A stretch of DNA of 58,301 nucleotides from Actinomycetota bacterium. Lineage in GTDB: Bacteria; Actinomycetota; JAICYB01. The notes under the pieces are model-generated. The model was not told where the DNA came from. It worked only from the letters and a program-made list of their open reading frames with translations, and did not search any database. Location: assembly GCA_035536535.1 (NCBI GenBank), contig DATLNZ010000086.1, positions 1 through 58,301 of the forward strand. The letters run 5' to 3'. Below, piece by piece: positions 2,502 through 40,033 of this stretch (position 1 is its first letter; every line of letters begins with the position of its first letter). Made by a program: the position numbers and the translations under genes.

Positions 2502-3563
2502 GTGGGCAGACGCGTCCTCATAACCCGGCTTTCCTGGTTCCTCAGCTCCCGCTTGGCACAGATGCTGGAGCAGGACCCGGACGTGGAGTACATCCTCGGG
2601 GTAGACCTGCAGGAGCCGGCAGCAGAGCTCGAGCGCACCGAATACCTGCGCGCGGACATCCGCCGTCCCGTGCTCGCGCGGGTGATCGAGGCCACCGGCA
2701 TCGACACCGTCATCCACCTCGGCCTGTACTCGACTCCCGACGAGGCGGGGGGCCGGGGCGCGATGCACGACCTGAACGTGATCGGGGCGATGCACCTGTT
2801 CGCGGCCTGCCAAAAGGCCGGGACGGTGAAGCGTGTGATCGTTCGGTCCTCGACCGCGGTCTACGGAGCCGACTCCGGAGACCCGGCGGTGTTCACAGAG
2901 GAGATGGGGCACTCCTCGCGCAACGAGCCCTTCGGACGTGACTGCTCGGAGATGGAGGGCTATGCGCGAGACTTCGCCCGTCGCCGGCGGGACGTCCTGA
3001 CCACGACGTTCCGTTTCGCCAACATCCTCGGTCCGGCGTCGGACACGCCGCTTGCGCAGTACCTGACGATGCCCATCGTGCCCACGATGCTCGGATTCGA
3101 TCCGCGGCTGCAGTTTATCCACGAAGACGACGCGGCGGACCTGCTGCTCCGGGCTCTGCGGGAGCCCGTGGCGGGGACGTACAACGCCGTCGCCGAAGGC
3201 GTCATGTACCTGTCGCAGGTGATCCGTCAGGGCGGACGGCTCGAGCTGCCCATGCCCATGGCGGCGCTGAACCTGCTGGCTCCGGTCGTGAGACTGACCG
3301 GCCAAGGGCTGCGCATACCTCCGCACGTGGTCCGGCTCATCCAGTACGGCCGGGTGGCCGACAGCGGCAGGCTGCGCACTCAGCTGGGGTACGTCCCGCG
3401 CTACACGACACGCGACGCGGTCAGGGAGTTCTACGCCGAACGCCGCCTTCGGCGCGTGGTCCGGGCGACGCAGCCACAGCCGTGGGAGAGGGAGCTTCAG
3501 GAATTCGTCACCCGCAAGGGCCGCGAGCGCTTTGTGACATCCGGATCCAGGAGGCGGAACTGA
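2502..3563 (+). CDS. NAD-dependent epimerase/dehydratase-fold protein (GalE2/Rv0501-like) with degenerate cofactor motif
   Basis: Extended-SDR fold recognisable across the length (VIHLGLYSTP, VIVRSSTAVYG, synteny after bS22). The N-terminal glycine motif reads ITRLSWFLSS instead of TGxxGxxG. GTG start at 2502. Confidence 0.75.
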   Translation: MGRRVLITRLSWFLSSRLAQMLEQDPDVEYILGVDLQEPAAELERTEYLRADIRRPVLARVIEATGIDTVIHLGLYSTPDEAGGRGAMHDLNVIGAMHLFAACQKAGTVKRVIVRSSTAVYGADSGDPAVFTEEMGHSSRNEPFGRDCSEMEGYARDFARRRRDVLTTTFRFANILGPASDTPLAQYLTMPIVPTMLGFDPRLQFIHEDDAADLLLRALREPVAGTYNAVAEGVMYLSQVIRQGGRLELPMPMAALNLLAPVVRLTGQGLRIPPHVVRLIQYGRVADSGRLRTQLGYVPRYTTRDAVREFYAERRLRRVVRATQPQPWERELQEFVTRKGRERFVTSGSRRRN

Positions 3564-35424: not shown

Positions 35425-37074
<1,650 letters not shown>

Positions 37075-37100: not shown

Positions 37101-37128
37101 GCGGCGGGCCCCTCCGGGGGCCCGCCGC
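37101..37128 (+). terminator. GC-rich hairpin after groEL
   Basis: GCGGCGGGCCCC-TCCG-GGGGCCCGCCGC: a perfect 12-bp stem, followed by TCCGTTTGCC. Confidence 0.6.
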
Positions 37129-37209
37129 TCCGTTTGCCTGGCGTGTCCGAACCTGTGCACTCCTTGTACTAGGCGACCGGGTAGACGTTCTGCCTCTTGT
37201 CTATACCTC

Positions 37210-37238
37210 TTGACATGCTCACAGAGTGTCTATAGGCT
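37210..37238 (+). promoter_or_regulatory. candidate promoter of the HTH-ClpN-ZBD gene
   Basis: TTGACA (37210-37215), a 17-nt spacer, then TAGGCT (37233-37238), in a locally AT-rich stretch about 40 nt before RBS GGGAGGAG and ATG 37278. Confidence 0.45.
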
Positions 37239-37277
37239 CTGATGAGAGCAACCCGCTTTGACACGAGGGAGGAGCCC

Positions 37278-38285
37278 ATGGTCCTGGACGAGAAGCTCGT
37301 GAAAGCCGCTGCCGCCCTGCGAGCCGAGGCTTCCGAGCTGCAGGCCCGGGCGGAAGGGCTGACGCTGGAACTCCACCGGACCGTCCGGCGCTTGAACGCG
37401 ATGGGCGGGTCCCTTCGGGAGATTGCGTCTGCGCTTTCCATCAGCCATCAGAGGGTCCACCAGATCGTCGGAGACGATGTGGCCGTGGAGCTGTTGAGAC
37501 GGGTGACGTCACAGGAGCCGGGCGACCTGCGCGGGGCGCTTTTGGATGAGATTGGCCGAGCCGGTCCCGCCCCGGGTCCGGGCGCGGGCGCGGCGGGCGC
37601 CAGGCTCTCGCGGCTGGTCTCCCGCGCGGGCCGGGAGGCGATGGGTCTCGGGCACGGGCACCTCGGGCCGGAACACCTCGTGCTCGCCGTCCTGACCGAA
37701 GAACAGGACCAGACGGTGGCTTTCCTGGCGAAGTCCGGTGCGTCCCTGGAGAAGGCCCGGGAGAAGCTGGCCGACCTGATCGGCCGGACCGACCCGACGA
37801 CCACCGCGGCCGGCAATGCGCGCTACGAGGCCGTGGTCGACGCCGCCCGGACCGAGGCGGTGATGAGCGGGGCGGCGGAGGTGGAGCCGGTTCACGTGCT
37901 GTTGGGCGTGCTCGGTGGCCGCCGCGAAGCCGGGGGGGCCGGGCCCTCGTCCGGCAAGGGCTCCGATGGTTTCGGCGAAGCGCTCGGCTGCTCCTTCTGC
38001 TCCCGACACCAAAAGGACGTGAAGAAGCTCATCGCGGGCCCGGGAATCTACATTTGCGACCAGTGCGTGGAGCTGACGCGGCCGGTGCTGGCCGGAGCGC
38101 CCGTGGCGGTGGACGAACGGACGTCGATCGCCTCCGCGCCCGTGGGCTTCGTCGACTCGTGCCGGTTCTGCGGCAAGAGACTGAAGCAGGTCAAGGCCAT
38201 GGCGGTGTCCGGCGAGTCCGTGATCTGCAACGAATGCATCGACCTCTGCGGGGAGATCCTGGCCGAGGAGCTGCCCACGGCCTGA
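37278..38285 (+). CDS. multidomain protein: N-terminal HTH + Clp N-terminal (Clp_N) repeat domain + two ClpX-type C4 zinc-binding domains
   Basis: [24 protein letters not shown]. Clp_N repeats [18 protein letters not shown]... and [16 protein letters not shown]1 [32 protein letters not shown]2 [30 protein letters not shown]. Confidence 0.8.
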
Positions 38286-38330
38286 CGCGAAAGTGTTTCC
38301 CCCCGGCGGTTTCGGGCCGATACTTGAGGC

Positions 38331-38798
38331 ATGAGCCTCGGAGCACAGCCTGTCGCACCCGGTGACGTGAGGGAGATCATCGACCGCAAGATGGCCGACT
38401 TCCAGCACGTGTCGCGCGGTGTGCACGTGCGCCACCTCGACCCGGACCCTTACTTCGACGCCGCCTTGGAGGACCCCGACATCCGGTTCGCCGTCGAGAC
38501 GGGCTTCATCACGGAGATCAAGCAGGAACTGCGCGATCCCGTCCTCGCCCTCGCGGGCGACCGCGTCGTGTTCACCTGTCCGACGCTGGTCGTGCGCGTT
38601 CTAGCCCCCGAGCCTCCCGAGATCCACCGCGCCTTCGTGGAGGGAGTTTTTATGCGAAAGCTGTTCCGGTTCTTCGTCCCCGCCGCCCACGAGGGAGGGA
38701 CCGGCTTTGAGGCCTCGCAGCAGGTGCGCGAGATCATGCAGCGTCACTTCGCCTGGCAGCTGGTCGTGACCGAGACGCTGCTGGGCCAAGCCTCCTAG
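38331..38798 (+). CDS. hypothetical protein
   Basis: 155-codon ORF with high GC3 between the Clp-like gene and guaB3. No motif recognised. Confidence 0.55.
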   Translation: MSLGAQPVAPGDVREIIDRKMADFQHVSRGVHVRHLDPDPYFDAALEDPDIRFAVETGFITEIKQELRDPVLALAGDRVVFTCPTLVVRVLAPEPPEIHRAFVEGVFMRKLFRFFVPAAHEGGTGFEASQQVREIMQRHFAWQLVVTETLLGQAS

Positions 38799-38875
38799 AG
38801 CTCGCGCCCGGGAACCCGCGTCCGGGGCCTCGGGTATCCTTTGGAGACAGCCGACCGCGCCGGGAGGTACTTCCT

Positions 38876-40033
38876 TTGGAGATAGACATCGGGATGGGCA
38901 AGAAGGCGCGCCGCGCCTACGGTTTCGACGAGATCTCGATCGTGCCGTCCCGGCGGACCCGCGACCCCGACGACGTGGACATCTCCTGGCAGATGGACGC
39001 CTGGCGGTTCGGCCTGCCGCTGATGGCCTCGGCCATGGACGCCGTCGTCTCCCCCTCAAGCGCCATCGAGATCGGGCGGCTCGGAGGCCTGGCGGTCCTG
39101 AACCTCGAGGGACTGTGGACGAGGTACGAGGACCCGTTGGAAGTGTACGAGCGGATCGCGGCAACCCCGGTCGAGGAGGCGACAAAGGTCCTCCAGGACG
39201 TGTACACGGAGCCGGTCCGTGGCGACCTGATCCAGGAGCGGATCCGGCAGATCAAGGCCGGGGGCGTCGTCGCCTCGGCCTCCCTGACGCCCCAGAGGGT
39301 CCAGGAGTTCGCTAAAGACATCCTCGCCGCGGAACTGGACATCCTGGTGATCCAGGGGACGGTGGTCTCCGCCGAACACGTGTCGCTGACCCGGGAGCCG
39401 CTCAACCTCAAGGAGTTCATCCGCACCTTCGACCTGCCGGTCATCGTCGGAGGATGCGCGTCGTATGACACGGCGCACCACCTCATGCGCACCGGCGCGG
39501 TGGGCGTCCTTGTGGGCGTCGGCCCGGGGGCCGCCTGCACCTCGCGGCAGGTCCTCGGGATCGGGGTCCCGCAGGCCACGGCGGTCTCCGACGCGGCCGC
39601 GGCGCGGATGCGGCATCTGGAGGAGACGGGCCGCTACTGCCACGTGATCGCCGACGGAGGGATGCGCACCGGCGGCGAGGTGGCCAAGGCCATTGCGTGC
39701 GGAGCCGACGCGGTCATGATCGCGTCGCCGCTGGCGGGGGCCTTTGAGTCGCCCGGCCGCGGCTTCCACTGGGGCATGGCGACGTTCCACCCGGAGCTGC
39801 CGAGAGGGGCGCGGGTTGAGACGGGCCAGGGCGCGACTTTGAAGGAGATCCTCACCGGGCCCGCGGCCGTGAACGACGGAACCCTGAACCTTTTCGGAGC
39901 GCTGCGCTTTTCAATGGCGACATCCGGGTATGGCTCCATCAAGGAGTTCCAGAAATCCGAGATCGTGGTGGCCCCGGCCATCAAGACTGAGGGCAAGGAC
40001 CTGCAACGCGCCCAGAAAGTAGGGATGGCATGA
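38876..40033 (+). CDS. guaB3: GuaB3-family IMP dehydrogenase-related protein (no CBS pair)
   Basis: EIDIGMGKKARRAYGFDEISIVPSRRTR... and the IMPDH TIM-barrel core (GVGPGAACTSR, ADGGMRTGGEVAKA) without a CBS insert. TTG start 8 nt after GGGAGG. Confidence 0.85.
   Translation: MEIDIGMGKKARRAYGFDEISIVPSRRTRDPDDVDISWQMDAWRFGLPLMASAMDAVVSPSSAIEIGRLGGLAVLNLEGLWTRYEDPLEVYERIAATPVEEATKVLQDVYTEPVRGDLIQERIRQIKAGGVVASASLTPQRVQEFAKDILAAELDILVIQGTVVSAEHVSLTREPLNLKEFIRTFDLPVIVGGCASYDTAHHLMRTGAVGVLVGVGPGAACTSRQVLGIGVPQATAVSDAAAARMRHLEETGRYCHVIADGGMRTGGEVAKAIACGADAVMIASPLAGAFESPGRGFHWGMATFHPELPRGARVETGQGATLKEILTGPAAVNDGTLNLFGALRFSMATSGYGSIKEFQKSEIVVAPAIKTEGKDLQRAQKVGMA

Follow-up and report, generated by a model that had tools for sequence, protein, structure and literature searches.

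What might be the function of a protein that carries the substrate-receptor domains of Clp unfoldases behind a DNA-binding segment and has no ATPase module? The question is raised by a gene lying downstream from groEL2 in contig DATLNZ010000086.1, a stretch of 58,301 nt hereafter called the window (positions are contig coordinates). Judging from its sequence, the product of this gene belongs, as a divergent member, to a large family; it is no orphan and does not evidently stem from a chimeric assembly. Genes of this family are typically preceded by a palindrome positioned at their own promoters. These features led us to favor, with some reservation, the view that the protein is an autorepressor resembling ClpC2, whose receptor-mimic domains would sense ligands of ClpX and ClpC and titrate them.

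A DNA-binding module joined to Clp receptor domains

The original prediction, made from the DNA letters, described a single 335-residue polypeptide combining a helix-turn-helix (HTH) segment, a Clp_N domain and two copies of the ClpX-type C4 zinc-binding domain (ZBD), without an AAA+ module. This composition was borne out by Pfam and NCBIfam searches and by AlphaFold2 models compared to known structures with Foldseek. Both types of receptor domain scored above their Pfam cut-offs: zf-C4_ClpX (PF06689) matched in two stretches with 84.8 bits (cut-off 27), and Clp_N (PF02861) with 44.3 bits (cut-off 20.7; E 2e-11). No AAA family match to the protein was obtained in either database. The NCBIfam models for ClpX, ClpA and ClpB matched over their N-terminal domains only, and the ClpX equivalog models reached 57-61 bits against cut-offs of 359-371, indicating that the protein is not ClpX proper. 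With E-values of 4e-24 and 2e-11 and an architecture that recurs in other genomes (see below), the domain matches are not attributable to chance.

The N-terminal module, a long helix followed by the HTH, was modelled with predicted local distance difference test (pLDDT) values of 93-98 over residues 1-66. It bears the signature GGSLREIA..L.xSHQRVHQI, and the alignment of related modules contains 16 invariant columns; the profile of the module matches the window protein at E 3.7e-24. The HTH had been likened to those of sigma region 4 and LuxR. Foldseek agreed with this assignment, finding resemblance to the HTHs of resolvases, LuxR/DosR and sigma region 4, with Pfam matches staying under threshold (MarR_2, 18.8 bits; Sigma70_r4, 13.9 bits). 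HTH_23 is matched by 65 of 80 relatives. A first AlphaFold2 run, based on a mixed-architecture alignment, returned pLDDT values of 45-65 in the Clp_N region and was not usable for this part; the Clp_N model discussed below comes from a second run limited to Clp_N-containing rows.

The module defines a large family of Clp receptor proteins

Homologue searches revealed that the N-terminal ~70 residues recur ahead of differing C-terminal parts. Proteins recognised by a profile of this module are defined here as the HTH(SHQRVHQI)-Clp-receptor family, with clusters counted at 50% identity and genomic loci taken from species-representative genomes. The profile retrieved 1,468 clusters at E<=1e-3, 443 clusters at E<=1e-10, and 300 loci. 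Architectures were classified for the best 80 of the 300 loci. The HTH is followed by Clp_N in 42 of them (proteins of this branch measure ~225-245 amino acids [aa]), by two ZBDs in 22, by four ZBDs in 11 and by Clp_N plus two ZBDs in 3; one locus is frameshifted. Almost all full-length members of the family show one of these four layouts. Among metagenomic members, 108 of 116 carry Clp_N or ZBD.

When a profile of the three-part proteins was used for searching, 66 of the 120 top-scoring clusters turned out to have both Pfam domains, in proteins of 326-440 aa. Holders of this form include the cultured Tenggerimyces flavus (P0323) and Actinopolymorpha rutila (P0332), as well as a 725-kb contig of a metagenome-assembled genome (MAG; L089). 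RefSeq names the Tenggerimyces flavus and Actinopolymorpha proteins 'ClpX C4-type zinc finger protein'. The idea that the window protein represents an undescribed, one-off combination was thus abandoned: at least 66 clusters share its layout, some of them already named in RefSeq, and the layout is one of four found in the family. The window protein is the most divergent of the three-part members listed, with ~35-38% identity to the others (closest relatives measured). In its ZBD pair it resembles the ZBD-only branches (~50% identity) more than the other three-part proteins (36-45%), a pattern hinting that domains have been shuffled among family members.

Hosts belong mostly to the Actinomycetota (Thermoleophilia/Gaiellaceae, Acidimicrobiales, Rubrobacter, Lentzea, Streptosporangiales), and members were also found in MAGs labelled Dormibacterota, Vulcanimicrobiota, Myxococcota, Acidobacteriota and Verrucomicrobiota. 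Cultured hosts of the form with two ZBDs are Lentzea, where the protein is 145 aa long, and Acrocarpospora. A search of the full-text literature found no paper on HTH-ZBD proteins or on stand-alone ClpX-ZBD decoys.

Two further observations concern Clp receptor proteins with other layouts. In one protein (L096; JGI Ga0190272_10035821, positions 69-950), an HTH_17 domain of the excisionase type (26.3 bits, just below the cut-off) is followed by Clp_N, a single ZBD and a C-terminal coiled coil. This HTH_17 is unrelated to the HTH of the family; the fusion of Clp_N and ZBD to a preceding DNA-binding domain has thus taken place repeatedly. In addition, P0346 (643 aa) and P0403 (474 aa; named Candidatus Limnocylindria by one source) contain three or four complete Clp_N domains in tandem with no HTH, ZBD or AAA+ part, and are a further type of Clp receptor protein that stands alone.

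A palindrome at the family's own promoters

The regions upstream from the relatives' genes share the palindrome GTCTA-n6/7-TAGAC, typically cGTCTAGtacgCTAGACg. An exact GTCTA-n5-7-TAGAC sequence lies within 70 nt upstream of the start in 60 of the 80 family genes and a version with one mismatch in 9 more; two or more copies occur at 27 of the 80 loci. With one exception (L061), the palindrome is absent from the rest of the 3-kb flanks on either side. Because it sits upstream of the family genes and almost nowhere else around them, we read this conserved palindrome as a signature of autoregulation. Its family-wide presence at the genes' own promoters, as a predicted operator, strengthened the earlier suggestion that the protein could be a transcription factor as well as a decoy. 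The spacer follows the type of C-terminal part: among loci L011 to L090, it measures 6 nt at 53 of 56 sites in genes of the Clp_N type and 7 nt at 22 of 25 sites in genes with two ZBDs. The palindrome usually ends ~4 nt ahead of the start codon, a location suggesting that the relatives' mRNAs are leaderless.

At many loci of the Clp_N type and at the frameshifted locus L013, a further palindrome, GTCT ATG ACG CTA GAC, spans the start codon itself (position 2997-3012; L011-L013, L017, L022, L052, L053, L055, L059, L062, L063, L065, L066 and L086). Here an operator half-site supplies part of the codons for the conserved residues M-T-L-D, CTAGAC reading Leu-Asp.

In the window, the counterpart of the family palindrome is an operator-like element, O1, which overlaps the presumptive −35 hexamer (Table 1). 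It is the sole match with no more than one mismatch in 58.3 kb, where 0.28 would be expected anywhere in the window. The GTCTA-n6-TTGAC form of O1 is also found at L089, and TCTA-n6-TTGAC at L026 and L030. A second, partial element, O2, overlaps the −10-like hexamer. TGTCTATA is present twice (37198-37205 and 37227-37234). The layout in which TTGACA is followed after 12 nt by GTCTA is common to the window gene, L026 and L030. The promoter is missed by a strict sigma-70 scan, since TAGGCT fits TATAAT at only 3 of 6 positions.

The ZBD pair is asymmetric and the Clp_N domain degenerate

Both ZBDs were modelled with pLDDT values of 94-98. Compared to the Escherichia coli ClpX ZBD (PDB 2ds5, 2ds6, 2ds7 and 2ds8), they gave Foldseek target template-modelling scores (TM-scores) of 0.84-0.88 and root-mean-square deviations of 0.6-1.3 Å; ZBD1 matched the E. 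coli domain at E 3e-12, with 46-54% identity in the Foldseek alignments. Both copies had been credited with the four Cys residues and the KLIAGPG.YICD.C core. The Cys residues are indeed complete in both; KLIAGPG is found in ZBD1 only. The asymmetry extends to the whole family: odd ZBD copies retain the ClpX half CSFC..KLIAGPG.YICD.C, even copies retain the ClpX C-terminal helix C(I/L)xLCxEIxxEE, and proteins with four ZBDs repeat this complementary conservation twice. Since the LIAGPG loop and the C-terminal helix are conserved in complementary halves of the pair, the alignments suggest that the tandem ZBDs may pair within the chain as an asymmetric pseudo-dimer that presents a single ClpX-like face. 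The two domains probably fold back on each other in the manner of the ClpX ZBD dimer.

The proline of the LIAGPG loop is presumably residue P30 of mycobacterial ClpX, going by our numbering of that sequence. Mycobacteria resistant to ilamycins carry either mutations in ClpC1's N-terminal domain (NTD) or the ClpX P30H change (PMC12350849). As ilamycins select mutations in both places and the loop is conserved in ZBD1, natural products plausibly address both receptor domains, the ClpC NTD and the ClpX ZBD.

The Clp_N domain is present as proposed and proved incomplete. Six helices are modelled, as opposed to the eight (two four-helix repeats) of the full domain, with pLDDT values mostly of 86-95 and a dip to 69 near residues 171-180. 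The Pfam match covers a single repeat (residues 118-169), whereas relatives score two stretches. Target TM-scores against the NTDs of ClpC1 and ClpC were 0.6-0.71. In the segment corresponding to helices α7-α8, pLDDT falls below 50 at residues 219-227 and one short helix of low confidence follows. Known ligand contacts of the ClpC1 NTD and ClpC2 involve F2, F80 and E89 for cyclomarin and the Thr of the RFT motif for phosphoarginine (PMC10030653, PMC13345244); helix α8 of ClpC2 is described as a phosphoarginine-sensitive switch in a 2026 preprint (PMC13345244). In the alignment, the F-x-R-F-T motif, containing ClpC1 F2 and the phosphoarginine-site Thr (T6), is replaced by Gly/Ala in the window protein, F80 has no equivalent, E89 is changed to D, and the GTEH motif reads GPEH in the first repeat and EPVH in the second. 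With the equivalents of F2, T6 and F80 and helices α7-α8 lost, the dual sensing of ClpC and ClpX ligands envisaged in the original prediction is doubtful for this copy. The remnant is more likely to serve as a spacer or oligomerisation piece than as a sensor. Since the ligand-contact residues and α8 are gone from Clp_N, sensing in the window protein is likely to be the task of the two ZBDs.

A model for autorepression and the alternatives to it

The sole characterised precedent is mycobacterial ClpC2 (Rv2667), in which an N-terminal dimerising DNA-binding module precedes a copy of the ClpC1 NTD. ClpC2 represses its own leaderless gene through promoter palindromes of the type CGTCAAC-n5-GTTGACG; cyclomarin, rufomycin or phosphoarginine release it, whereupon the protein acts as a sponge for the antibiotic (PMC10030653, PMC13345244). 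The analogy with this decoy, drawn at the outset, has turned out to be the best available. On the corresponding model, which we consider somewhat better than an even bet, the window protein, as a dimer or higher oligomer, would bind the GTCTA-n6-TAGAC-type sites O1 and O2 over its own −35 and −10 motifs and repress its own synthesis. A molecule that docks on the ClpX ZBD would bind the receptor mimics (in relatives, ligands of the ClpC N-domain might do so too); this might be a natural product aimed at Clp, an adaptor, or a protein that bears a degron. Binding would cause the loss of DNA binding or oligomerisation, the gene would be derepressed, and the accumulated protein would titrate the ligand away from the real unfoldases. 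The independent HTH_17-Clp_N-ZBD fusion mentioned above also lends support to this scheme.

Several points weigh against such an autorepressor. Its functions are predictions for all family members, and the role of a stand-alone ZBD as ligand receptor is putative. The similarity of the N-terminal module to that of ClpC2 is marginal. A PDB profile search with the module did not recover the ClpC2 structure 8ada, and an hhalign comparison to the ClpC2 NTD (a query taken from the N-terminus of Rv2667, which agrees exactly with PDB 8ada and with proteins in the databases) gave a 15% probability with 12 sequences; larger profiles raised the figure to 62% (E 7.6e-5), with 42 columns in register over the helix and the HTH. 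The DNA contacts of ClpC2 lie partly in its Clp_N domain, according to Taylor et al. (PMC10030653); for proteins with ZBDs only, the comparison may therefore not hold. In the window protein, moreover, Clp_N is devoid of ligand-contact residues and α8, and the models do not settle how the domains are oriented to one another (predicted TM-score 0.44-0.51). Lastly, the operator is weaker than those of the relatives, consisting of one 9/10 palindrome and half-sites, and the gene has a leader of ~30 nt with a Shine-Dalgarno sequence where most relatives have a start-proximal operator.

A broader proposition, which we advance tentatively and regard as somewhat less probable than not, is that the ZBD-bearing branches are the first ClpX-directed counterparts of ClpC2, that is, autoregulated decoy-sensors for molecules aimed at the ClpX ZBD, the three-part forms integrating ClpC and ClpX signals. 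Were this the case, soil bacteria would commonly meet natural products that target the ClpX ZBD, or else use an unrecognised degron signal read by this domain.

Alternatively, the protein could work as a partner or substrate of the Clp machinery. Its ZBDs would form heterodimers with those of ClpX, or its Clp_N remnant would associate with ClpC, and the protein would serve as an adaptor, an anti-adaptor, an inhibitor or a degraded reporter of free Clp capacity. In line with this, the ZBDs of ClpX dimerise (PDB 2ds5 and 2ds6 are two-chain ZBD entries), the family ZBDs are 50-70% identical to those of ClpX, and ClpC2 and ClpC3 are reported to compete with ClpC1 for degrons, ClpC3 being called a 'caretaker' of ClpC1 (review PMC12678426). 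However, the ZBDs of the family always occur in tandem, as two or four copies, and their complementary halves point to an intramolecular pseudo-dimer as opposed to a free half-dimer. Furthermore, no conserved linkage of family genes to clpX, clpC or clpP was seen in 90 related loci. We therefore hold this alternative to be unlikely.

The ZBD of ClpX is reported to be sensitive to oxidation in Bacillus, and the C4 ribbons could make up a redox or zinc switch, in which oxidation or loss of zinc unfolds the ZBDs and releases the repressor without any ligand mimicry. The eight conserved zinc-ligand Cys residues fit this proposal, as does the finding that ZBDs are the sole C-terminal part at 33 of the 80 best loci; autoregulation, for its part, fits any type of sensor. 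The proposal leaves two facts unaccounted for: this HTH has, apart from ZBDs, no other fusion partner than Clp_N, a ClpC receptor domain free of cysteines, and both KLIAGPG in ZBD1, a set of ClpX surface residues that provides no zinc ligand, and the ClpX C-terminal helix in ZBD2 have been retained. A switch of this kind seems quite improbable to us.

It remained to consider whether the three-part reading frame could result from the joining of unrelated sequences during assembly, or be a decaying fusion devoid of function. The window sequence occurs in only one public run, of a soil metagenome. Independent contigs from this run cover 37121-37489 and 37681-39657 without mismatches, leaving uncovered the GC-rich linker and the beginning of Clp_N (37490-37680). 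The earlier concern about an artefact could thus be answered in part: the Clp_N-to-ZBD junction lies within a 1,977-nt independent contig, and full clearance of the remaining interval was not reached. The HTH-to-Clp_N junction, which falls in this interval, is a combination found in dozens of relatives. Sequencing depth is similar on both flanks (8-10x, against 6-10x elsewhere) with no alternative path seen, and the coding-frame signal in G+C at third codon positions (GC3) is continuous across the open reading frame (ORF). Loose ends at 37578 and 37675, considered as possible signs of a chimera, were traced to an unrelated contig of 4.3 kb that matched by chance over 20 nt. The metagenome contig collection contained no match to an exact 28-mer taken from this interval, and what a protein-based scan of metagenome contigs brought up was for the most part ClpX genes, with no close relative among them, the window protein being a singleton at 90% identity. 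Although the single run with its gap, the lack of close relatives and the degenerate Clp_N would suit an artefact or a relic, the contig across the Clp_N-ZBD junction, the even depth, the continuous GC3 signal, the presence of the architecture in at least 65 other clusters (isolate genomes and the 725-kb MAG contig included), and an intact ORF with well-conserved HTH and ZBDs, its own promoter and a Shine-Dalgarno sequence render either origin highly improbable.

The gene and its surroundings

The ORF ending at 38285 has two candidate starts, ATG 37242 (347 aa), used in the public protein record, and ATG 37278 (335 aa). The N-termini of all relatives (M-x-L-D-E/D..LL) align residue for residue with MVLDEKLV from ATG 37278, which is also preceded by the Shine-Dalgarno sequence GGGAGGAG; ATG 37242 sits 3 nt past the putative −10 hexamer. 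The second start, the one chosen in the original prediction, is favored on both grounds and the 335-codon frame on the forward strand was kept.

Table 1. Features of the Clp receptor gene and its upstream region
Feature	Positions	Strand	Remarks
GC-rich hairpin, 12-bp stem, TCCG loop	37101-37128	+	27 nt after groEL2 stop; read from sequence
Isolated TAGAC half-site	37182-37186		Upstream of O1; motif defined from relatives
Operator-like palindrome O1, GTCTAtacctcTTGAC	37199-37214		9/10 half-site bases of GTCTA-n6-TAGAC; overlaps −35 hexamer
−35 hexamer TTGACA	37210-37215	+	Read from sequence; 17 nt upstream of TAGGCT
O2	37228-37243		GTCTA at 37228-37232 intact, right half 2/5; overlaps −10
−10-like hexamer TAGGCT (TANNNT)	37233-37238	+	Inferred from sequence
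Shine-Dalgarno GGGAGGAG	37267-37274	+	3 nt ahead of ATG 37278; read from sequence
Coding sequence	37278-38285	+	335 aa plus stop; frame-specific GC3 0.81-0.92 throughout
N-terminal DNA-binding module, residues 1-66	37278-37475	+	Long helix 5-41 (37 residues); HTH 46-53 and 57-65
Linker, residues 67-104	37476-37589	+	Gly/Pro/Ala-rich toward C-terminal end; pLDDT <50, predicted largely disordered
Degenerate ClpC-type N-domain, residues 105-217	37590-37928	+	Six helices, α1-α6
Gly/Ser/Pro-rich segment, residues 218-235	37929-37982	+	Site of Clp_N helices α7-α8 in relatives
ZBD1, ClpX-type C4 zinc ribbon	37989-38093	+	Cys 238/241/260/263; KLIAGPG retained
ZBD2, ClpX-type C4 zinc ribbon	38160-38270	+	Cys 295/298/317/320; no LIAGPG loop; ClpX-like C-terminal helix retained

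The gene lies in a housekeeping region. The order in the window is ABC transporter (FtsX/MacB-type permease), groEL2, the Clp receptor gene, a 155-aa ORF, guaB3-like, guaA, alpha/beta hydrolase and pcrA/uvrD; G+C content varies between 66 and 73% along the window and is given overall as 68%. This value and the succession groEL2, guaB3-like, guaA, pcrA suggest a host in the Actinomycetota. The groEL2 gene (35425-37074) has no groES upstream. Its product is a singleton at 90% identity among ~15 billion proteins, and the host lineage must therefore be poorly sampled. The hairpin beyond its stop codon is likely to be the groEL2 terminator, separating groEL2 from the transcription unit of the receptor gene; a consensus terminator scan omits this hairpin, whose T tail is poor. 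Proximity to groEL2 had been pointed out. This linkage was rejected as a signal, and the position is incidental: groEL is absent near all 90 related loci, and tblastn searches of these loci with groEL2, the 155-aa ORF, guaB3-like and two further neighbours gave zero matches. The gene surroundings of six relatives all differ from one another.

The 155-aa ORF (38331-38798, forward strand) begins 45 nt beyond the stop codon of the receptor gene with no obvious terminator between, and may be co-transcribed with it. It has no Pfam or NCBIfam match and no homologue in the 90 related loci.

Implications

In mycobacteria, both ClpC1 and ClpX are essential and serve as drug targets; decoys of the ClpC2 type already blunt antibiotics directed at ClpC1. 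A widespread family that crosses phyla and carries ClpX ZBDs behind a DNA-binding module of the same kind, predicted to be autoregulated, suggests the existence of an equivalent, unstudied layer of ClpX defence or sensing, and the interest of the locus comes mainly from the ZBD-bearing branches that it revealed. Such proteins could provide bait for finding ligands of the ClpX ZBD and, as repressors paired with a defined operator, might be used as ready-made biosensors. They could also account for intrinsic tolerance to ilamycins and similar compounds, which select mutations in the ClpC1 NTD and the ClpX ZBD.

Comparison with known systems

The ZBDs of the window protein have the C4 zinc ribbon and the fold of the ClpX ZBD (PF06689; PDB 1ovx and 2ds5-2ds8). 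Unlike ClpX, the protein lacks the AAA+ ATPase, carries two ZBDs per chain with complementary conservation, and has them fused to a DNA-binding module. A Clp_N fold without ATPase is shared with mycobacterial ClpC3 and with plant ClpT1 and ClpT2 (Foldseek target TM-score of 0.6-0.69 against ClpT2, 4y0c), proteins for which no HTH or ZBD is reported. ClpT proteins function in ClpP core assembly in plastids. The same three-part layout and N-terminal signature are found in the proteins of Tenggerimyces flavus and Actinopolymorpha rutila, which are uncharacterised and, unlike the window protein, have a complete two-repeat Clp_N.

The closest parallel in form is with mycobacterial ClpC2 and its orthologues in actinobacteria. 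Like the family, ClpC2 is small, has no AAA+ part and places an N-terminal DNA-binding module ahead of a Clp receptor domain; the HTH+Clp_N branch has this very layout. Both have palindromic operators (predicted ones in the family) over their own promoters, often in two copies and near the start codon. The likeness is one of form only, as the operator sequences differ (GTCTA-n6/7-TAGAC in the family, CGTCAAC-n5-GTTGACG for ClpC2). The window protein departs further from ClpC2 in having two ClpX ZBDs, in the loss of the contact residues and of α7-α8, and in the leader of its mRNA. The protein was not classed as an orthologue of ClpC2, given the marginal N-terminal similarity in the PDB profile search and hhalign comparisons described above and in Foldseek, where the window model had no 8ada match listed. 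The ClpC2 NTD sequence itself matches an 84-residue PDB chain, 9sdc_A 'RelI', at E 2e-6, which marks this chain as a relative of the ClpC2 NTD. On present evidence we treat the family as a functional analogue of ClpC2 and, possibly, as its distant relative.

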